IMG/VR virus record: IMGVR_UViG_2563366842_000009
Source of the DNA: a virus
Lineage: Duplodnaviria; Heunggongvirae; Uroviricota; Caudoviricetes
Strand: one strand, 5' to 3'
DNA length: 29,651 nt
A program made the translations under genes and the position numbers. Positions 15 to 9,136 of the stretch are shown piece by piece. Position 1 is the stretch's first letter, and each line of letters starts with the position of its first letter. Below the pieces are notes generated by a model. The model was not told the origin of the DNA. It saw only the letters and a program-made list of their open reading frames with translations, and searched no databases.

Positions 15-47
15 GATAAAAAAGGGCCAGCCAATTGGCCAGCCCTT
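15..47 (-). terminator. Near-palindromic hairpin (aagggccagccaattggccagccctt, 22..47) flanked by an A-run on the plus strand, i.e. a U-tract for minus-strand transcripts; candidate intrinsic terminator downstream of int or of a flanking host gene
   Basis: 11 of 13 stem positions pair when folded; aaaaaa immediately 5' on the plus strand. Confidence 0.4.
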
Positions 48-171
48 CTTAACAGGATGTCGCTTAAGCGAAACCTTAGTTAAGACGCTCCTATTAACAC
101 CCCATACCAAACAAGCACTTATCATATAAAACAACTAGTTAAAGTAATTTTTAATGCAATGAATTGCAGTG

Positions 172-1221
172 CTATGAAACCTCTGCCGCCACATTGTCGC
201 CAACATACAGCGATAACGGATTGAGGGTGACAGCTTGTTCAAGGTGGTCAGGAGCAAAGTGTGCATACTTCATTGTTTCTCGAATATTGGCATGCCCGAG
301 AATTTTCTGCAGCACCAGTATATTCCCGCCGTTCATCATAAAATGTGCACCAAAAGTATGACGCAAAACGTGCGTCTTCTGCCCTTCCGTCAATTCAATA
401 TTCGTTAGTTTGAGCATCTTTTTAAACTCCTGATAGCAGGGTTTAAACATTCTGCCTTGACGTTCGGACAACTCGTCGTACAGCCATTTAGGGATAGGAA
501 CTGTGCGATTCTTCTTACCTTTGGTTTTGGTGAACGTCAGTTTATATGGAGAAAGTTGCGGGCGGGTCAATCTCTCCGCTTCCCCCCATCGAGCGCCGGT
601 TGCAAGGCACACCTTAACAATCATGGTGAGGTCTTCTTTGCCGTATTGCTCGCAGGCTCGAAACAGCTCAGGGAGTTGAGACAAAGTCAGCCATGACATT
701 TCTTTCTCAGCTTCTTTGAATACTCGGATCCCATCAAGTGGATTGGGTAGGCTCCATTCCCCTAACCGGCGGAGCTCATTAAACACTGCTTCTAGGTATT
801 GTTGTTCGCGATTGACGGTTATAGGTTTGGCGATCCATTTCGAGGGGTCTTTATGATAACCATTGTCTATTTCACCACGTAATCGACGGTCACGATAATG
901 AGCCCAGTCTTTCGCGGTAAGGCGAGATGCAATCGGGTCGCCAAGTCCATTACATACGATTTGAAGCTTTGCAAACCTCGACTTACTGGCGACTAACGCT
1001 TGACCGTGCAAATTGTGCCAAAGCTGAATAATCTCGCTTAAGCGTCGGCGGTCTTCTTTCTTGCCGAGCCACGGCTTATCTTCACTCTCGCTTTTGGTAA
1101 ATGCTTCGAATGCCTCGGCCTCACCTTTGGTATTGAATTGCCGACGTATACGCCGCCCTTCTCTACCATTTGGATAGAGCTCGCATAACCATTTGCCATT
1201 TTTTTGCTTACTTACAGTCAT
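172..1221 (-). CDS. int: Phage integrase, tyrosine recombinase (P2/186 Int family)
   Basis: 349-aa ORF at the prophage end adjacent to the repressor; C-terminal catalytic region with LRHTFGAHF, LGH and a Tyr-containing tail typical of tyrosine recombinases. Confidence 0.9.
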   Translation of the reverse strand: MTVSKQKNGKWLCELYPNGREGRRIRRQFNTKGEAEAFEAFTKSESEDKPWLGKKEDRRRLSEIIQLWHNLHGQALVASKSRFAKLQIVCNGLGDPIASRLTAKDWAHYRDRRLRGEIDNGYHKDPSKWIAKPITVNREQQYLEAVFNELRRLGEWSLPNPLDGIRVFKEAEKEMSWLTLSQLPELFRACEQYGKEDLTMIVKVCLATGARWGEAERLTRPQLSPYKLTFTKTKGKKNRTVPIPKWLYDELSERQGRMFKPCYQEFKKMLKLTNIELTEGQKTHVLRHTFGAHFMMNGGNILVLQKILGHANIRETMKYAHFAPDHLEQAVTLNPLSLYVGDNVAAEVS

Positions 1222-1243
1222 AATGTCACCGAAGCAACTCTAA

Positions 1244-1582
1244 TTATTCGCAAAGTGCTGTTGCGGCATCCATTACAGGATCCAAAGGAATTTTTACACC
1301 TGCATACTCTGGACTGTCTTTCCAAACAGCATCAATATTGCTCCCCTCAAGCTTTCCAGACTTTACTCCATCAATAGCAAAACCATTTAATGGGTATCGG
1401 TCATCAGTTGCTTTGTCGTACACAAAGGCATACTTACCGTTGACGCAAGACACCGTAGCTTTTTCAAAAGTTAACGGCCAATCATCACCAAACTTAGTGC
1501 CGTCTAAATCCTGTGTTTTTTCAGAGGCTAAGGAGCCAAAAGAAAAGGTAAGAAGCATAGCTAAAAAGAGTTTACGTTTCAT
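1244..1582 (-). CDS. Small secreted (signal-peptide) protein, cargo/moron between cI and int; function unknown
   Basis: Start taken at the internal Met (MKRKLFLAMLLTFSFGSLA|SE...) with an AAGGGA RBS 8 nt after the repressor stop; the track ORF extends to 1654 but that overlaps the repressor 3' end. Hydrophobic N-terminal signal peptide with an SLA cleavage-like site, no lipobox Cys. Local GC is visibly lower than the backbone. Confidence 0.6.
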   Translation of the reverse strand: MKRKLFLAMLLTFSFGSLASEKTQDLDGTKFGDDWPLTFEKATVSCVNGKYAFVYDKATDDRYPLNGFAIDGVKSGKLEGSNIDAVWKDSPEYAGVKIPLDPVMDAATALCE

Positions 1583-1590
1583 AATTTCCC

Positions 1591-2451
1591 TTATACGTGT
1601 TTTTCCAATGTGAAAACTACAACCCCGGCAGGCGTAATGTCGGTAATGTTGCATTCAAACTCAGCAGACTTATTTGACAACCTGACTTTTCCACCAGGTA
1701 AACGAATTACATCAAAAACATCAAGAGCGCCGTCGATATCAATTAACCAGCGGCCATTACTTATATTCGAAGCAGAACAGTCGACAAGCCAAGAGGCGGC
1801 CACACCGTCAACAAAAATCAATTCCCCTGAGTTAGAAGGAATCATTGAGGGGTCAGGCTGCCACGTTCCTGCGTCCTTAAGCTCACCAGATTCGAGGCGA
1901 GATTTTTTAATAGAAAAACCAGATGTGACACCTTCCCTGTTAGCTCGCATTTGCCCCTTGCCTGTTGCTAACCATTCCAGTGACGTATCGGTATCAAGAG
2001 CGCATGTAACAACAACATCACCGGGGAAAAAATCTCGCCTTACCCATGTGCTAATTGTGCCAGAGGAAATGCCGAGCAAATCACCAAGCTCCTTTTGCAT
2101 GGTAAAGCCGTACGCATCAAGAATCCTACGCAAAACGGTTTTACCACCATTCGTCATAATCTCGTCATAAAGCTCTTTGCCTTTTAACTTGCAACCGGCA
2201 CGCTCGCAATTTGCATTTGCAAGCTCTCCATTTACAAGCCAATTGATATCAGCTCCCGTGTCAAGACAACACCTAACTATGACGTTGCCAGGTATTGCAT
2301 CACGCTGAACCCAGCCGCTAACGCTGTGTTTAGCGATACCTAGCAGGTCAGCCAAATCCTTTTGCATCTTGACGCCATAGGCTGACATTAAGCGTTCCAA
2401 TACGCCGTTCGTTGCACTAACACGCCACTGAACATCAAGCTCAGAACTCAT
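1591..2451 (-). CDS. cI: CI-type immunity repressor (186 CI family) with a tandemly duplicated N-terminal HTH domain
   Basis: 286 aa. Two adjacent segments (about aa 16-78 and 106-166) are clearly paralogous (VLERLMSAYGVKMQKDLADLLGIAKHSVSGWVQRDAIPGNVIVRCCLDTGADINWLVNGE vs VLRRILDAYGFTMQKELGDLLGISSGTISTWVRRDFFPGDVVVTCALDTDTSLEWLATGK). The C-terminal part resembles the 186 CI C-terminal domain as I recall it (...WLVDI.GA......LPG.K......FEC...). Divergent from the Apl-like gene, upstream of int as in 186. Confidence 0.8.
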   Translation of the reverse strand: MSSELDVQWRVSATNGVLERLMSAYGVKMQKDLADLLGIAKHSVSGWVQRDAIPGNVIVRCCLDTGADINWLVNGELANANCERAGCKLKGKELYDEIMTNGGKTVLRRILDAYGFTMQKELGDLLGISSGTISTWVRRDFFPGDVVVTCALDTDTSLEWLATGKGQMRANREGVTSGFSIKKSRLESGELKDAGTWQPDPSMIPSNSGELIFVDGVAASWLVDCSASNISNGRWLIDIDGALDVFDVIRLPGGKVRLSNKSAEFECNITDITPAGVVVFTLEKHV

Positions 2452-2480
2452 AAAAACCCCTATAGATAATTTTATGGGTG

Positions 2481-2509
2481 TTTACAGAAAACTTTTTACG
2501 ATCTATAGT
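2481..2509 (+). promoter_or_regulatory. Candidate lytic promoter (pR analogue): -35 TTTACA (2481..2486), 17-bp spacer, -10 TATAGT (2504..2509)
   Basis: Sigma70-like hexamers with canonical spacing in the cI/apl divergent intergenic region, about 65 nt upstream of the ATG at 2573, which has an AGGAG RBS. Confidence 0.5.
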
Positions 2510-2572
2510 GGCGTTCATCGACCAAGATGCACACCACTGCACTACATTTCAAACAACAGGAGATAATGCGAT

Positions 2573-2926
2573 ATGTCAGATGCAAAATCAATCCCGCTGC
2601 ATGACACACAAAACTTACAAAATCAAACTGTATTGCTAGACGCTGGTCAGTTCAACGCGCTTGTAACCATGATGCAGCTATCCATGCAAAACATGATTCG
2701 TACAGCGATGTTAGACACCATGTCAGTAAAAGACTTCGCCGCCGCCCGTGGCGTTAGCGAGCGTCTGGTCTGGCAATGGATTGATGAGGGCGTCCTTCTC
2801 AAAGCTCCCACCAAAGATGTTACCAGCAAAGAAAAAGCCGCTAAGCGTAGCCGCACCCTTATCAACGTCAAAGCATGGCGTGACAAACTGACCCAGCAAG
2901 CTATCGATTGCCGTTATATCAACTAA
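2573..2926 (+). CDS. Apl/Cox-like small DNA-binding regulator/excisionase (putative)
   Basis: First gene of the rightward early operon, divergent from cI, the position occupied by apl in 186 and cox in P2. Contains an HTH-like segment (VKDFAAARGVSERLVWQWIDEG). No close recalled match, so assignment rests on position. Confidence 0.5.
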   Translation: MSDAKSIPLHDTQNLQNQTVLLDAGQFNALVTMMQLSMQNMIRTAMLDTMSVKDFAAARGVSERLVWQWIDEGVLLKAPTKDVTSKEKAAKRSRTLINVKAWRDKLTQQAIDCRYIN

Positions 2927-2976
2927 CAGTCATCGCTTAACTGAACTTGATTTTGCAAGTTAAAGGGAGTTACAGC

Positions 2977-3486
2977 ATGTTAGATTTTCGTGTTTCGTCA
3001 CATGCGCACTTTGACGAGGCCTGCAGAAAATTCGCAGCTACTCATAACGTGAAAGAACTAGCGAATAAAGCCGGAATCAAGCCGCATACGCTTTACAACA
3101 AACTCAACCCAGAACAGCCGCACCAGTTAACGCCGCGTGAAATCTGGACACTGACAGACCTGACCGAAGACTCGACTCTCGTCGATGGTTTTCTGGCGCA
3201 GATCCATTGTCTGCCATGCGTACCGGTCAACGAGCTGGCAAAAGAGAAATTGCAATCCTACGTCATGCACGCAATGAGTGAACTAGGCGAACTGGCAAGC
3301 GGTGCAGTTTCCGGCGACCGCCTCACGCCAGCCAAAAAACAAAACATGATTGCTAGCGTAAATGCGGGGATTCGCATGTTGTCATTATCGGCAATGGCGC
3401 TGCATGCACGCCTGCAGACTAATCCCGCTATGTCGAGCGTAGTCGATACTATGAGCGGTATTGGCGCATCGTTTGGTCTGATTTGA
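2977..3486 (+). CDS. cII: CII-like lysogeny-establishment transcriptional activator (186 CII family)
   Basis: Start chosen at ATG 2977 with AAGGGAG RBS, giving 169 aa. Strong similarity to 186 CII as recalled (LNPEQPHQ.TP, TDLTEDSTLVDGFLAQIHCLPCVPVNELAK, C-terminal NPAMSSVVDTMSGIGASFGLI). Confidence 0.85.
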   Translation: MLDFRVSSHAHFDEACRKFAATHNVKELANKAGIKPHTLYNKLNPEQPHQLTPREIWTLTDLTEDSTLVDGFLAQIHCLPCVPVNELAKEKLQSYVMHAMSELGELASGAVSGDRLTPAKKQNMIASVNAGIRMLSLSAMALHARLQTNPAMSSVVDTMSGIGASFGLI

Positions 3487-3493
3487 GGTGCGT

Positions 3494-3721
3494 ATGCTGA
3501 AAAGTGAACCGTCATTCGCGTCTCTGCTCGTTAAGCAAAGCCCCGGCATGCATTACGGCCACGGCTGGATCGCAGGTAAGGACGGCAAGCGCTGGCACCC
3601 GTGCCGCTCACAGTCCGAATTATTAAAAGGGCTGAAAACAAAGTCGCCGAAATCGTCAGGTTTTTTAATTATTCGTATTGTCCACTTTGTAATTAAAGGA
3701 GTGAAACATGTCACGCGATGA
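3494..3721 (+). CDS. Hypothetical early protein
   Basis: ORF immediately after cII with GAGGTG-like RBS before ATG 3494; the 3' part runs into an AT-rich island, so the true extent is uncertain. Confidence 0.35.
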   Translation: MLKSEPSFASLLVKQSPGMHYGHGWIAGKDGKRWHPCRSQSELLKGLKTKSPKSSGFLIIRIVHFVIKGVKHVTR

Positions 3722-3974: not shown

Positions 3975-4208
3975 ATGAGTCGAACTATTTATTTATCAAC
4001 GCCGAGTAGTGCTGGCGACCACGTGCTGGAGTCTTTGTTTAAAGAAGCCAAAAAAGAAGAGCGCAAAGACCGCGCTCTCGCCGTTTCAATCCGTCTCGAA
4101 GCTCTGGCCGTTCACATTACCAATTCAGATATGACCGGCAAAGAAGCGGCCGAACTGTTGCGCCGTGAAGCAGCCCGCTTTGAGAACGAGTCACAGGAGC
4201 TGCACTAA
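3975..4208 (+). CDS. Hypothetical early protein (77 aa)
   Basis: AGGAGG RBS before ATG 3975; stop overlaps the next start (TAATG), indicating translational coupling. Confidence 0.6.
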   Translation: MSRTIYLSTPSSAGDHVLESLFKEAKKEERKDRALAVSIRLEALAVHITNSDMTGKEAAELLRREAARFENESQELH

Positions 4209-4429
4209 TGGCCGACGCAATTGATTTAGCACAACAGCGTGAGCAGGAAGACCGCGAGCGCCACATCAGCAACGCGCGCAGCCGTATCGCTGCGCCCTCT
4301 CGCTTCCTCTGCGAAGAATGTGACGCACCAATCCCGGAAGCTCGCCGCATTGCGATTCCGGGCGTGGCCTTTTGCGTGACATATCAGCAAATCGCGGAGC
4401 TCAAACACAAACACTACAGGGGCGTTTAA
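4208..4429 (+). CDS. TraR/DksA-family zinc-finger protein (P2 Orf82-like)
   Basis: 73 aa with CEEC...FCVT Cys motif and an N-terminal acidic coiled region; similar small proteins are conserved in P2-like early operons (recalled). Confidence 0.6.
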   Translation: MADAIDLAQQREQEDRERHISNARSRIAAPSRFLCEECDAPIPEARRIAIPGVAFCVTYQQIAELKHKHYRGV

Positions 4430-4819
4430 ATGGTTAATAAACACTTAACAGACAAGCGCGCGCGTCTGCGCAGGGCCGCTCAAGACTACCAATCTACATT
4501 ATCGTGGTATCAAGAAAACCTCGATAGTCCAAATGCAGAACAGGATTGCGATGAGGCAACCGCGGCATTTAAGCGCGAAATCGGCCATCGAGAGACAGAC
4601 ATTATTGCTGACCTGTTGGATGAAATAGACGAGCTCCGGGAATACCGAAAAGCTCGCATTGTTCCTGATGGCTGGATAGCAGTACCTTCGGAGCCTACTG
4701 GCGATATGCTGGCGCGAATCAAGCTTTCTGATATTTGGACAACCGAAGCGCTAACCACCAGATACAAAGACATGCTACGCGCCGCCCCTCGCGCGCCATA
4801 TGAGGGGATAAACAAATGA
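4430..4819 (+). CDS. Hypothetical early protein (129 aa)
   Basis: Translationally coupled ORF in the early operon. Confidence 0.55.
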   Translation: MVNKHLTDKRARLRRAAQDYQSTLSWYQENLDSPNAEQDCDEATAAFKREIGHRETDIIADLLDEIDELREYRKARIVPDGWIAVPSEPTGDMLARIKLSDIWTTEALTTRYKDMLRAAPRAPYEGINK

Positions 4820-5088
4820 GCATTAATATCAGTATTGGCGACAAATGGGTTATTACCAGCGACCAGTATCAATTCATCCTGAATGAAAAGAAGGTCGTTA
4901 AGTCTGGTAAAAAAGCTGGCGAGGAATGGCTCGACACCATCGGTTATTACCCCAAGATTAACCAGCTTATTTCCGGGCTGATTCATCATCATATTCAGCA
5001 GTCATCAATTACCACGCTTGACGCAATGGCATCTGAAATTGAGCGTATCGGAGAAATGTGCGCCTCCTCTATCAAGGCGGCGACATGA
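4816..5088 (+). CDS. Hypothetical early protein (90 aa)
   Basis: ATGA overlap with the preceding ORF; coupled early-operon position. Confidence 0.55.
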   Translation: MSINISIGDKWVITSDQYQFILNEKKVVKSGKKAGEEWLDTIGYYPKINQLISGLIHHHIQQSSITTLDAMASEIERIGEMCASSIKAAT

Positions 5089-5366
5089 GAAAAACACATC
5101 AACTAAAAATTCGGCCTGAGTTTTTTCAGGCTGTCATCAATGGAACGAAAAAAGCCGAGTTTCGTCTTGCTGACCGTGCTTTTGCTGTAGGGGATTTACT
5201 TTGCTTAAACGAGTATGGCCACTGCGAGTATGACCCGCAAAAGGTCGGGTTTACAGGGGCATTTGTCTACGTGCTGGTGACTCATGTAACTGACCTTAGC
5301 GAGTGGGCTCCTGGCTATGTGATGCTAAGCATACAGCGTAGGCAAATGGGGGAACTATGCGGGTAA
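5085..5366 (+). CDS. ASCH/DUF3850-like small protein
   Basis: Start at ATG 5085 (AAGGCGG RBS); the N-terminus (HQLKIRPEFFQAVINGTKKAEFRL.DR.F.VGD) resembles the ASCH-like DUF3850 fold as recalled. Confidence 0.55.
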   Translation: MRKTHQLKIRPEFFQAVINGTKKAEFRLADRAFAVGDLLCLNEYGHCEYDPQKVGFTGAFVYVLVTHVTDLSEWAPGYVMLSIQRRQMGELCG

Positions 5367-7591
5367 GCGTTAATTATGCTTACCCGTGGAACACTCCACG
5401 GTCGGCAATAGCCAGCCCATATCTTACCTATAACCAACAGCATCGCCGCGACCGTATGTTCGCGGCTTTGCTGCATGCGAGAAAGGTGCTTTCTCTGCAG
5501 CCTGAGTGCGTGCGATTTGACGTTTATCGCACCGCTGAAGTGCTGGAACAAAATCAGGGCAGTCAACGAGCCAATGCTTTTTTAATCAACTTCTGCAAAA
5601 AGGCATTGCCGCGTCTTGAACTGGTCGCAAAAAAATATGAGTGTGCAGGCATTAGCAGCGATGTATCAGGCGCTGTTTTCGGTGGTCATTTCGATACGAA
5701 ATATATGCAGTATCTGGCATCACGTATGGTCAATATGGTCGCCAGATACAACCGCCTCCCGGATATGTCGCGTGCCGACATTGACCTGCTTTCTGCTGAT
5801 ATCGCTAATTTTATTCGTGCTGAACTGGCAGAACATGATGACGCTGATTCACATTTCGGCGAGTTGGCGACATTACATGGCTGGTACATGCGCGCCGGAT
5901 TAATTGCGCTGCAATTTGGTGTTACTCCTCCTCATTGGGCGGGACTGACAACAAAATACTTTGACCAGGACAAAGCGGCGCCAGCAATCATGCGCATGTT
6001 TAATGAGGTTTGGTGGCGTGGCCGTCTGCGACGCATTGCTGCGTCATGGCGCGAACATCTGCAAATTGCAGTCGGTAATGTCAGCAAAAAACGACACGCC
6101 TACGCGAGTAAAAATTGTGTGACCGACTGGCGCGAGCAGAAGCGCCGCACGCGTGAATTTCTCAAAGGGCTGGATCTCGAAGACGAAGACGGCAACCGCA
6201 TCAGCCTGATTGAAAAATATGATGGCTCGGTCGCCAACCCTGCGATACGTCGCTGCGAGCTGATGACCCGCATCCGTGGGTTTGAAAATATCTGTAATGA
6301 ACTCGGTTATGTCGGGGAGTTTTACACCCTGACCGCGCCGTCTAAATATCACGCCACAACTAAAGCAGGCTACCGTAACAGCAAATGGAACGGAGCCAGC
6401 CCGTCGGACACGCAGAGTTATCTCACTGGCCTTTGGGCGCGCATACGCGCCAAGCTACACCGTGAAGAAATCCGCATTTTCGGCATCCGTGTTGCCGAGC
6501 CTCATCACGACGGGACGCCTCACTGGCACATGCTTATGTTTATGCTGCCGGAAGACGTTGAGCGTGTGCGCCTCATTATTCGCGATTATGCGTGGGAGGA
6601 AGACCACCACGAACTGAGAAGCGATAAAGCCAAAAAGGCACGTTTTCATGCCGAAGCCATTGACCCGGAAAAGGGCAGCGCTACCGGCTATGTCGCTAAA
6701 TACATTTCCAAAAACATCGACGGATATGCTCTTGATGGTGAAACCGATGACGAAAGCGGTGAGCTGCTGAAAGAGACAGCTCCCGCCGTATCAGCATGGG
6801 CGGCGCGCTGGCACATCCGTCAGTTCCAGTTTATCGGCGGTGCGCCGGTGACGGTCTACCGTGAATTACGTCGTCTCGCTGATACCGAGACCGCGCACGG
6901 TCTGAGCGTTGAGTTTGCTGCCGTCCATGATGCCGCTGACGCCGGTGACTGGGCTGGTTACGTTAATTCGCAGGGTGGTCCGTTTGTCCGTCGCGATGAT
7001 TTACAGGTGCGCACGCTGTATGAGCCGCGCCCCGAGTTTAACCAGTATGGTGAGGAAACCGTCTGCATTCGTGGCGTCTACGACTCTGCTGTCGGTGCTG
7101 GCACCCCGATTTTAACCCGGTTAACGCAGTGGAAAATTGTGCCGAAGCGTGCCGTTGATTTGGCCGTTGACGTTAAGGGCGCTCCTGCGCCCTCTCGGAG
7201 TTCTGTCAATAACTGTACGGGAAGCGAAAGCGATCCACCGGAACTCGATTTATCAAAACCCCTGAGTCGACGTGAAAGACGAGAGCTGACCAACCGACTC
7301 AGGAAGCAAAAGCCAGCAATACGGCGAAAATTCATCCACGGAACGGATGAGCAAAACGCAGCTATAGCTAAAACTATCGACGAGATACAACTGACAACCG
7401 GCATTACAATCGGCCGTGGCGAAGCCCTGCACCTGATGGCCGGTGGTAAAAGTTGTTTTGATGGCAAATGGCTACGCGGAACGGCCAAAGGAGAAATATT
7501 CTTAGCAGCACCATCGCATCAGGCTAAGGCTAGAAAAATCCTTTATCGTGTTGCTGCGATGGCTGAGGCATCAAAACCAATGCCTGAGTAA
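5357..7591 (+). CDS. A: Rolling-circle replication initiator endonuclease (P2 gpA family)
   Basis: 744 aa. HUH-type metal-binding motif (TPHWHMLMF) and catalytic tyrosine motif (GYVAKYISKNIDG) characteristic of P2 A / phiX174 A-type replicases; size and position match P2 gpA. Confidence 0.9.
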   Translation: MRVSVNYAYPWNTPRSAIASPYLTYNQQHRRDRMFAALLHARKVLSLQPECVRFDVYRTAEVLEQNQGSQRANAFLINFCKKALPRLELVAKKYECAGISSDVSGAVFGGHFDTKYMQYLASRMVNMVARYNRLPDMSRADIDLLSADIANFIRAELAEHDDADSHFGELATLHGWYMRAGLIALQFGVTPPHWAGLTTKYFDQDKAAPAIMRMFNEVWWRGRLRRIAASWREHLQIAVGNVSKKRHAYASKNCVTDWREQKRRTREFLKGLDLEDEDGNRISLIEKYDGSVANPAIRRCELMTRIRGFENICNELGYVGEFYTLTAPSKYHATTKAGYRNSKWNGASPSDTQSYLTGLWARIRAKLHREEIRIFGIRVAEPHHDGTPHWHMLMFMLPEDVERVRLIIRDYAWEEDHHELRSDKAKKARFHAEAIDPEKGSATGYVAKYISKNIDGYALDGETDDESGELLKETAPAVSAWAARWHIRQFQFIGGAPVTVYRELRRLADTETAHGLSVEFAAVHDAADAGDWAGYVNSQGGPFVRRDDLQVRTLYEPRPEFNQYGEETVCIRGVYDSAVGAGTPILTRLTQWKIVPKRAVDLAVDVKGAPAPSRSSVNNCTGSESDPPELDLSKPLSRRERRELTNRLRKQKPAIRRKFIHGTDEQNAAIAKTIDEIQLTTGITIGRGEALHLMAGGKSCFDGKWLRGTAKGEIFLAAPSHQAKARKILYRVAAMAEASKPMPE

Positions 7592-7890: not shown

Positions 7891-8124
7891 ATGAGAATCA
7901 ATATCACGTTGGATAAAGAGCAAAAAATTAGTCAGGCAACGTTGGATGCACTAGAGGCTGAGCTGTACCGCAATCTTCAACCTATTTACCCAAAGACTGC
8001 TATCCGCATTCGCAAGGGCTCCGCAAATGGTGTTGAGCTAAGCGGTTTGAAACTGGACGAAGATAAAAAACGAGTAATGGAAATCATGCAGCAAGTATGG
8101 GAAGACGATAGCTGGCTGCATTAA
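7891..8124 (+). CDS. DinI-family protein (Tum C-terminal-like module)
   Basis: 77 aa aligning along its length with E. coli DinI as recalled (MRI.[IV]T..K......A.DAL..EL.R......P......R.......LS........K.R..EI.Q..WE....W); low-GC region. Confidence 0.8.
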   Translation: MRINITLDKEQKISQATLDALEAELYRNLQPIYPKTAIRIRKGSANGVELSGLKLDEDKKRVMEIMQQVWEDDSWLH

Positions 8125-8197: not shown

Positions 8198-9136
8198 TTA
8201 ATTTAGTTTTAATGAATGGTACTCAACCGAGTCGACCTTAGATTTGATATATGTACAATCATTTACAGAGAGTAATGCTGCTAGTAAGCGACATACCAGA
8301 GCCTGCATTTCTCGTAATATATCATCACCATATTGACCGCCATTAACACTGGAGAAACCAAGCGGTTGACCATAGAAAATAGCCTCATGAAAATTATCAT
8401 TGCGGATGGTTGTAATATTTTTTTTGCCTGTTACCCATGAAGGACGTGGTATGCCATAGGTTTCGCACAGCCACTTTAACCGCCTGGAATGATTTAACGT
8501 TTTTTCAGGGCACTTGTTTTTTTCTGCCCACGCTAAAGCAAAGCAACCATCCAATGCCATATAAAGATAATGGAACTTTTCAAATGAAAGGTATTGTGGG
8601 TTGTGAGATAAAAATAGTGCGTGCACCACTGCCGCTATTTTTATTGGTGATTTCTCTTTTTTTTGCTCGCTAGATATGTAATTGAGAGCCAATTCTATGA
8701 TTGCTTTTTCAGAGCATCTGCCGAGAGTAAAGTCTGTTAACTTAGCAGGCTTGATGGGGGTTGCATCTAAAAAACCAGCTTCGGTGGTTGTTAATCTCAT
8801 CCCCCTGAAAAAAGACAGGCACCACACAACAAAGTTGAGAGTTTCTAGCGAGGATGTATTTTTTAATTTTAGTATGTGCGTTTTTGGTAATCCGAATACT
8901 CGGCAACTATAAGGCATTGTGGATATGCCGCCATTAAAGTTATATATCTCTTGGTTTCCGGGGTATATCCAGCCATTAACAACATTTTTGTCATTGTTAA
9001 CGCGCTCTACTTTCTCAGCGAGGCCGGGTAAAGTAAGTAAAGAAAAATTTTCAGTCTCAATGTTAACTTCTACTGGATAGTATCCAAACTCAGATCCAAT
9101 CTCATCGGGCTGCTGTTCGGTAACTTCACCTTGCAT
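8198..9136 (-). CDS. Orphan 312-aa protein in the A-cos accessory hotspot; candidate anti-phage defence or abortive-infection protein, function unknown
   Basis: Good RBS (GGAG 6 nt before ATG at 9136); low GC relative to the phage backbone; no signal peptide or obvious transmembrane segment; occupies the old/tin position of P2. Contains an R-N-x-x-x-H motif (RNDNFH, 8387..8404), which is only weak evidence for a HEPN-like RNase. Confidence 0.7.
   Translation of the reverse strand: MQGEVTEQQPDEIGSEFGYYPVEVNIETENFSLLTLPGLAEKVERVNNDKNVVNGWIYPGNQEIYNFNGGISTMPYSCRVFGLPKTHILKLKNTSSLETLNFVVWCLSFFRGMRLTTTEAGFLDATPIKPAKLTDFTLGRCSEKAIIELALNYISSEQKKEKSPIKIAAVVHALFLSHNPQYLSFEKFHYLYMALDGCFALAWAEKNKCPEKTLNHSRRLKWLCETYGIPRPSWVTGKKNITTIRNDNFHEAIFYGQPLGFSSVNGGQYGDDILREMQALVCRLLAALLSVNDCTYIKSKVDSVEYHSLKLN

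Follow-up and report, generated by a model that had tools for sequence, protein, structure and literature searches.

We analyzed a 29,651-nucleotide (nt) stretch of Caudoviricetes DNA (IMG/VR record IMGVR_UViG_2563366842_000009), referred to here as the window, to whose whole length all positions refer, and we focused on the gene that lies between the phage repressor gene cI and the integrase gene int. The interval at 1222-1590 is the entire gap from the cI stop to the int start, and it contains a single same-strand open reading frame (ORF), located at 1244..1582 on the minus strand (ATG 1580-1582, TAA 1244-1246) and encoding a 112-amino-acid (aa) protein with the predicted features of an exported DUF2511/YebY-fold protein. 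Upstream on the same strand is cI (1591..2451), the first gene of the apparent operon, whose 286-aa product is an immunity repressor with two Phage_CI_repr helix-turn-helix (HTH) domains and a Phage_CI_C domain in Pfam. Downstream, also on the minus strand, is int (172..1221), the last gene, which encodes a 349-aa tyrosine integrase with Int_N and Phage_integrase domains. The initial annotation of this DNA had described a low-GC gene of about 112 codons here, with a signal peptide, two cysteines, and a YPLNG motif, and our analysis bore out that description. It had also stated that the repressor and integrase genes are adjacent in phages 186 and P2, and this holds as well: cI and int overlap by one base in 186, and C and int have no gene between them in P2, whereas in the window the DUF2511 gene separates the two.

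The DUF2511 gene is tightly packed against both of its neighbors. Its junction with cI reads TAA-GGGAAATT-ATG, with an 8-nt spacer. A ribosome-binding site had initially been placed 8 nt after the repressor stop; the 8-nt spacing is right, but the position of the site is not, as the Shine-Dalgarno sequence, AAGGGA, overlaps the cI stop codon (1591-1593). The whole segment (1583..1593, minus strand), consisting of TAAGGGA and a spacer of 5 to 6 nt, has the form of a translational coupling junction. On the other side, 22 nt separate the DUF2511 stop from the int ATG (1222..1243, minus strand), and this spacer holds a Shine-Dalgarno-like CTCGGTG element. Both arrangements are kept in nearly all related loci, the first as TAAGGGA or TAAGGAG, then N5-6, then ATG, and the second as the CTCGGTG element before int. 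Our scan of the window found no promoter-like or terminator-like sites on that strand between cI, the DUF2511 gene, and int. An independent promoter in the 3' end of cI was considered and rejected, since only 8/12 consensus matches occur there and they overlap the start codon.

Judged by its sequence, the window is a PSP3-type, 186-like prophage (Eganvirus, Peduoviridae) integrated next to yfiB in Escherichia coli. Over positions 75-3500, the identity to Salmonella phage PSP3 is 92%, and the window's CI is 98.6% identical to PSP3 CI; positions 1-74 match not PSP3 but the E. coli chromosome beside yfiB/dgcN, in the 3' flank of yfiB. The right end of the window is the stop of tail gene D. Several related prophages adjoin the same OmpA-family/GGDEF gene pair.

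The gene itself is not new. The exact window protein is present in NCBI RefSeq as WP_001550174.1, and its counterpart in PSP3, gp28/orf28 (NP_958085, phrog_2950; RefSeq equivalents WP_001550174.1 and WP_000823621.1), is 96% identical to it at the amino acid level and has the same position between cI and int with the same spacers, so that the two are copies of one gene in sister phages with no substantive difference. The PSP3 protein is annotated as [quoted passage not shown] and phage Midge labels its copy "putative periplasmic protein." In 2021, Hadley et al. (PMC8689200) had noted yebY homologues with a recombinase gene on one side and a gene for phage CI on the other, while a phylogenetic study of P2-like regulatory regions does not mention the DUF2511 gene (PMC3448106). 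The cI-DUF2511-int block (at least 80% coverage) occurs in 62 of 5426 complete E. coli genomes, or about 1%. Given that the protein is in RefSeq, that its PSP3 orthologue has been annotated for about twenty years, and that its context was published in 2021, we regard the object as already known. As an object it is ordinary.

We consider the ORF to be a real gene rather than a chance reading frame because of its match to Pfam DUF2511, its full-length match to phrog_2950, its ratio of nonsynonymous to synonymous substitution (dN/dS), and the architecture of its signal peptide, which has been kept. The initial annotation had suggested a small periplasmic family of unknown function, and DUF2511 (PF10709) is such a family: the match reaches 62.9 bits (cut-off 21, E 3.8e-17) and covers profile positions 6-87 of 87. 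The phrog_2950 match has an E value of 9.5e-52, and no function is assigned to that PHROG. NCBIfam has no model for the window protein, for its Klebsiella homologue, or for YebY, and whole-window scans detected no Rfam families or tRNAs. The gene is under purifying selection, with a pairwise dN/dS of approximately 0.10-0.15 at dS 0.4-1.5 among 50 related sequences; the same comparison gave 0.13-0.18 for cI and 0.02-0.04 for int. Its base composition (GC 41.0%, GC at third codon positions [GC3] 32.7%) differs from that of int (47.2% and 48.0%) and cI (46.2% and 42.2%), as would be expected of a moron, and the GC content of the window as a whole is 52.7%.

We assessed the signal peptide and the features of the mature part with our own heuristic rather than SignalP. 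The predicted Sec signal peptide occupies codons 1-20 (1523..1582, minus strand; MKRK followed by LFLAMLLTFSFGSLA, with cleavage at about SLA/SEK), an assignment that homology also supports. It has an n-region of MKRK (+3), a 15-residue uncharged hydrophobic core, and SLA/S at -3/-1, and the scan found neither a lipobox nor a second hydrophobic segment in the protein. Among approximately 40 homologues checked, the sequence of this region is variable and its architecture is kept. The mature protein would be about 92 aa long with a pI of 4.4. Its sole cysteines, Cys46 (codon 1445..1447, minus strand) and Cys111 (codon 1250..1252, minus strand), align with Cys48 and Cys113 of E. coli YebY, and both positions are at least 90% conserved across 126 family sequences. 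The tyrosine of the YPLNG motif (residues 63-67; 1382..1396, minus strand) is the only invariant column among those 126 members.

The predicted structure agrees with these alignments. In a phmmer search of the PDB, only E. coli YebY (7N0J) was matched (E 2e-7), with both cysteines, Trp35, and YPLN aligned. A first AlphaFold model, built from 16 close sequences, was of moderate quality (pLDDT 70.5), and Foldseek searches with it retrieved only YebY and MlbQ. It was replaced by a second model built from 126 diverse sequences (pLDDT 90.7), in which the mature domain scores 94-98 and the signal peptide about 62. The predicted fold is the alpha/beta fold of YebY and MlbQ and is nearly identical to that of YebY. 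A Foldseek search of viral predicted structures (BFVD) returned nothing at E <= 0.001. Taken together, sequence and model make it very probable that this real gene of a PSP3-type prophage next to yfiB encodes a Sec-exported protein, cleaved at about residue 19-20 to yield an acidic, soluble periplasmic domain of about 10 kDa with the YebY/MlbQ fold and a Cys46-Cys111 disulfide. The periplasmic location is well supported, although inferred.

One allele departs from this pattern. A cluster representative that is 91% identical to the window protein (P0001), was found on 8 contigs; in it the C-terminal Cys is replaced by Trp (...ATALWE), and the disulfide would therefore be missing there. It may represent gene decay or a variant that arose in sequencing.

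We asked how constant the arrangement is among relatives using 3 genome loci (from a collection with one genome per species), 44 viral contigs, and 2 annotated phage regions. The order cI-DUF2511-int was found in all 49 of these PSP3-type loci, which come from E. coli, Salmonella, Klebsiella, Enterobacter, and Pantoea. Two more distant lineages share it, giving 51 loci in which the region is intact. Even the most divergent members of the clade, from Klebsiella (46% identity), Pantoea (53%), and E. coli (47%), have the same arrangement and complete 186-like early regions. In the phage records, a PSP3-type cI (at least 74% identity) and the DUF2511 gene co-occur in exactly the same 10 entries, and across the phage records and the locus set, only phages with a cI of another type lack the DUF2511 gene. 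The window's double-HTH CI (286 aa) can be compared with 186 CI, which has one HTH (192 aa). In the phage collection, the double-HTH type and DUF2511 are always found together, although the cI beside DUF2511 in a Yersinia prophage encodes a single HTH.

Distances between loci differ among the three genes. Mean pairwise amino acid distances are 0.258 for the DUF2511 protein, 0.251 for CI, and 0.082 for the integrase, and the DUF2511 distances correlate with those of CI at a Mantel r of 0.70 and with those of the integrase at 0.50. Synonymous distances indicate recombination breakpoints between the DUF2511 gene and int: in loci L036-L044, for example, int has a dS of 0.10 while the DUF2511 gene is saturated, and PSP3 shows the reverse.

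These patterns bear on the proposal, made in the initial annotation, that the gene is an inserted moron. A moron, in the sense of Hendrix and colleagues, is a self-contained insert that is expressed in the lysogen. We rejected a recent moron of this kind: the gene has neither its own promoter nor its own terminator, and it is not sporadic, being present in 49 of 49 loci and 10 of 10 records, in every PSP3-type module down to 46% identity. Because it occurs throughout these modules, diverges more in step with cI than with int, and lacks its own promoter and terminator, the comparison of sequences leads us to conclude that the DUF2511 gene is an old, fixed, and long-resident middle gene of the PSP3-type lysogeny module.

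We then considered how the gene is likely to be expressed. A consensus scan gave a candidate pR (TTTACA-17-TATAGT; 2481..2509, plus strand) for the rightward lytic operon and, facing it, a candidate pL (TTGATT-17-CATTAT; 2563..2591, minus strand), the latter known from our scan only. This convergent arrangement is mirrored in the mapped promoters of 186 (pR/pL), P2 (Pe/Pc), and K139 (PR/PL), and in 186 and K139 the mapped pL/PL lysogenic operons run from cI through int. Downstream of the window's operon, the first noncoding terminator-like site is a strong hairpin with a 14-bp stem and a T run in host DNA beyond int (19..50, minus strand). The initial annotation had considered the gene likely to be expressed from the repressor transcript, and the same-strand unit that we found, with no intervening promoter- or terminator-like site and a conserved ribosome-binding site, makes co-expression the natural expectation. 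Given the conserved junction, the short spacers, and the lack of intervening sites, co-transcription and coupled translation with cI are the natural reading. The DUF2511 gene would thus be the middle cistron of a leftward lysogenic operon, cI-DUF2511-int, translated from the Shine-Dalgarno sequence that overlaps the cI stop, and production of CI would always entail production of the DUF2511 protein, driven by pL once lysogeny is established and by a CII-dependent promoter while it is being established. We consider expression of this kind likely, and the protein is probably made in every lysogen.

The wider DUF2511 family places the window protein in a setting that extends well beyond PSP3. At E <= 1e-3, an exhaustive profile search yielded 789 clusters (50% identity), of which the PSP3-type clade forms one (163 bits); the next cluster scores 90 bits. 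The wider family has a strong association with phages: several of the next-nearest proteins, whose surroundings we looked up, also lie in or near prophages. A Yersinia 186-like prophage has the order cI (single HTH)-DUF2511-int, and a metagenomic contig likewise has cI-DUF2511-int. A P2-like prophage of Stutzerimonas carries the gene downstream of a repressor-type HTH gene; in Ectopseudomonas, it again follows a repressor-type HTH gene, and no P2-like structural genes were seen at that locus. A Pseudomonas P2-like prophage has it after a 111-aa gene with no Pfam match, in Alloalcanivorax it lies between the P2 tail genes V and S, and in Mycolicibacterium it lies beside Imm61 and DpdA genes. 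The loci from Ectopseudomonas, Stutzerimonas, Pseudomonas, and Alloalcanivorax (L061-L062 and L066-L069) are in or beside P2-like prophage gene sets; two of them follow an HTH repressor gene, and one of these two adjoins a secreted SNase/Excalibur nuclease.

The Gram-negative relative that has been studied is E. coli YebY (7N0J), the third gene product of the copper-uptake operon yobA-yebZ-yebY (AZY). Experiments showed YebY to be periplasmic and monomeric, with a stabilizing Cys48-Cys113 disulfide and weak copper binding that was judged probably not physiological (PMC8689200), and its co-expression with the importer YebZ reduces copper accumulation (PMC11923076). The window protein is 30-32% identical to it, and its gene's partners are cI and int instead. 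Neither copC/yobA nor copD/yebZ lies beside the DUF2511 gene in the window or at the 51 intact loci. A rough neighbor-joining tree, drawn without support values, places the AZY-operon YebY proteins in a tight clade, 70-90% identical across genera, and shows the prophage DUF2511 lineages as deep, at approximately 30-37% identity to each other and to YebY. YebY thus represents a slowly evolving chromosomal clade with a copper-import phenotype, whereas the window protein belongs to a prophage lineage. NCBI names divide along similar lines, with the phage type called "DUF2511 domain-containing" and the other "YebY family." A degraded prophage of Winslowiella toletana, which has an integrase fragment and the order cI-DUF2511-bPH/SHOCT, adjoins the host copC-copD-yebY genes (L059/L060, 1-1483 versus 4149-5339), so that two DUF2511 paralogues, only 30% identical, lie 3.5 kb apart; this may be coincidence or an effect of the integration site.

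Given the separate AZY clade and the 30% identity between the two Winslowiella copies, we treat the window protein as a member of DUF2511 and not as an orthologue of YebY, an assignment we rejected on the grounds of its separate clade, approximately 30% identity, and missing CopC/CopD neighbors. The initial annotation had named homology to a housekeeping periplasmic protein as something that would speak against its proposal. Such homology exists in part, in that YebY shares about 30% identity and the same fold, but YebY stands in a separate clade and is not the orthologue.

What, then, might the protein do? The initial annotation had seen in this layout the mark of a periplasmic lysogenic-conversion or superinfection-exclusion factor, a reading that we regard as plausible. 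By analogy with proteins of similar position and compartment, we tentatively suggest that the protein could act in exclusion or as a periplasmic binder of the immunity type. By holding a component that reaches the periplasm from outside, it would shield both the lysogen and its prophage. Part of a superinfecting phage would be the likeliest target, and a periplasm-acting toxin a less likely one. We favor this suggestion because the gene is predicted to be co-expressed with the repressor and occupies a slot where other phages have exclusion and defense genes, including that of the soluble periplasmic protein Glo; because the family recurs in prophage lysogeny modules; because MlbQ, the one member to which an activity has been assigned, gives protection through binding of an agent that comes in; and because soluble periplasmic exclusion proteins are known, as in T4 Spackle.

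A parallel in position is Glo (NP_536629) of the P2-family Vibrio phage K139, in which the order is cI-orf2-glo-int with a mapped PL and glo directly upstream of int. Glo is annotated as "periplasmic protein; involved in phage exclusion" and has been described as a soluble periplasmic exclusion protein (PMC3952083). Like the window protein, it is small, has a signal peptide and two cysteines, and is encoded between cI and int; K139 differs in carrying orf2, which encodes a BRCT domain, in the same slot and in having no DUF2511 gene there. The cI-int interval of K139-like Vibrio phages is a defense hotspot (Rousset et al. 2022, PMC9122126). We tested homology between the two proteins and rejected it (hhalign probability 9%, confined to the signal-peptide region). 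T4 Spackle (gp61.3) is a small soluble periplasmic phage protein, as the window product is predicted to be, and it excludes superinfecting phage by binding the gp5 lysozyme, a virion component (PMC7677548). MlbQ of Microbispora (PDB 2MVO/6QFP) is a lantibiotic self-resistance lipoprotein for which immunity via NAI-107 binding has been proposed (PMC8689200). Unlike the window protein, which has no lipobox and whose gene has cI and int as neighbors, this actinobacterial lipoprotein carries a long linker, and its gene accompanies ABC-transporter immunity genes.

Several observations weigh against an exclusion or immunity role. We found no experiments in the literature on the window protein or on any phage-borne DUF2511 protein, and the only studied Gram-negative homologue, YebY, has been tied to copper import and not to phage (PMC11923076). 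PADLOC-DB 2.0 gave no match for the window protein at E values up to 0.1; because of this, and because Glo is not homologous, the idea of exclusion is drawn only from position and cell compartment. We sought the signature of an arms race and saw none at the level of the whole gene (dN/dS 0.10-0.15), and defense cargo is usually variable; strict conservation at one fixed position is less typical of it. Finally, the candidate pL is a weak, unmapped 8/12 consensus match, and the signal peptide was assessed by heuristics and homology instead of SignalP.

The main rival is that the protein is a YebY-like modulator of host copper import, acting on the CopD/CopC pair (YebZ/YobA) to dampen uptake. Altered copper load, NDH-2 activity, or mar induction would follow, and the gene would act in lysogenic conversion of metal physiology. 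The homology and near-identical predicted fold, the lowered copper accumulation seen when YebY accompanies YebZ, and the AZY operon's occurrence in enterobacterial hosts (PMC11923076) all speak for such a role, as does the prophage remnant in Winslowiella, with its DUF2511 gene 3.5 kb from copC-copD-yebY. Nevertheless, we consider it unlikely. The identity to YebY is only 30-32%, against 70-90% across genera within the separate AZY clade; the AZY and prophage copies of Winslowiella are no closer than 30%; and neither copC nor copD occurs at any of the prophage loci examined. The mature window protein has no histidine and one methionine, copper binding by YebY itself is weak and probably not physiological, and the recombinase/CI context was listed as "unrelated to copper homeostasis" (PMC8689200).

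Two further explanations deserve weighing. Small, exported, disulfide-bonded proteins are typical immunity proteins, and a Mycolicibacterium homologue adjoins a gene of the Imm61 immunity family, so the window protein might instead sequester a periplasm-acting bacteriocin, microcin, or type VI effector in the manner of MlbQ, to the competitive gain of the lysogen. We think this quite improbable: the protein lacks a lipobox, no ABC-transporter or toxin gene lies nearby, there is no known cognate toxin, and lantibiotics normally do not reach the Gram-negative periplasm. The gene might also serve the phage's own cycle, by conditioning the envelope at the establishment of lysogeny or by affecting induction or lysis, or it might have no role beyond spacing and coupling cI and int translation. 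Its fixation in every PSP3-type module, as in a core gene, and its tight coupling on both sides fit such a part, and according to the 186 and K139 annotations, int expression in P2-like phages needs read-through from the repressor gene. However, purifying selection acts across the whole mature protein and the signal-peptide architecture is kept, which goes beyond a need for ORF length; 186 and P2 manage without DUF2511; and a periplasmic protein could not act directly on the cytoplasmic switch. An own-cycle or null role is therefore, in our view, very unlikely.

Other genes share the cI-int slot in some relatives. Two loci (L005, at 4570-4974, and L030) have an extra 134-aa signal-peptide protein of no family between cI and the DUF2511 gene. 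Four others (L045-L048, at about 5355-5861) have a 168-aa bPH_3+SHOCT protein between the DUF2511 gene and int, and a 166-168-aa protein of the same type occupies this slot at the Winslowiella loci (L059/L060, at 5475-5975). PADLOC gave no match for the 134-aa or the bPH_3+SHOCT proteins. In Klebsiella phage 4LV2017, the slot holds a 349-aa gene with no assigned function.

Elsewhere in the window, the first rightward gene (2573-2926, plus strand), in the apl/cox position, encodes a 117-aa protein with a full-length match to phrog_3554, whose function is unassigned. This protein matched Cox-like excisionases weakly (E 6e-5), and the corresponding PSP3 protein was described as a singleton (PMC3448106), in agreement with our result. 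A 77-aa ORF just after the replication gene (7891-8124, plus strand) has a DinI-like look, and we take it to lie in a region like that of 186 Tum. The interval from gpA to the portal gene, the classical old/tin cargo hotspot of P2-like phages, contains an ORF of 312 aa (8198-9136, minus strand) for which we found no Pfam or PADLOC match.

The recurrence of DUF2511 in P2-like prophages offers a lead for the poorly understood YebY of E. coli. One conjecture, which we regard as doubtful, is that DUF2511 is at root a family of secreted proteins of P2-family prophages, usually encoded immediately after the repressor gene, expressed in lysogens, and serving in periplasmic exclusion or immunity through the binding of incoming components; the enterobacterial YebY encoded in the copper operon would then be an offshoot that became domesticated. 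If this were true, the role of YebY would need rethinking. If the window protein does act in exclusion or immunity, the P2 family would have, besides K139 Glo, a second such soluble periplasmic protein, and a Pfam family of at least 789 clusters at 50% identity would gain a phenotype.

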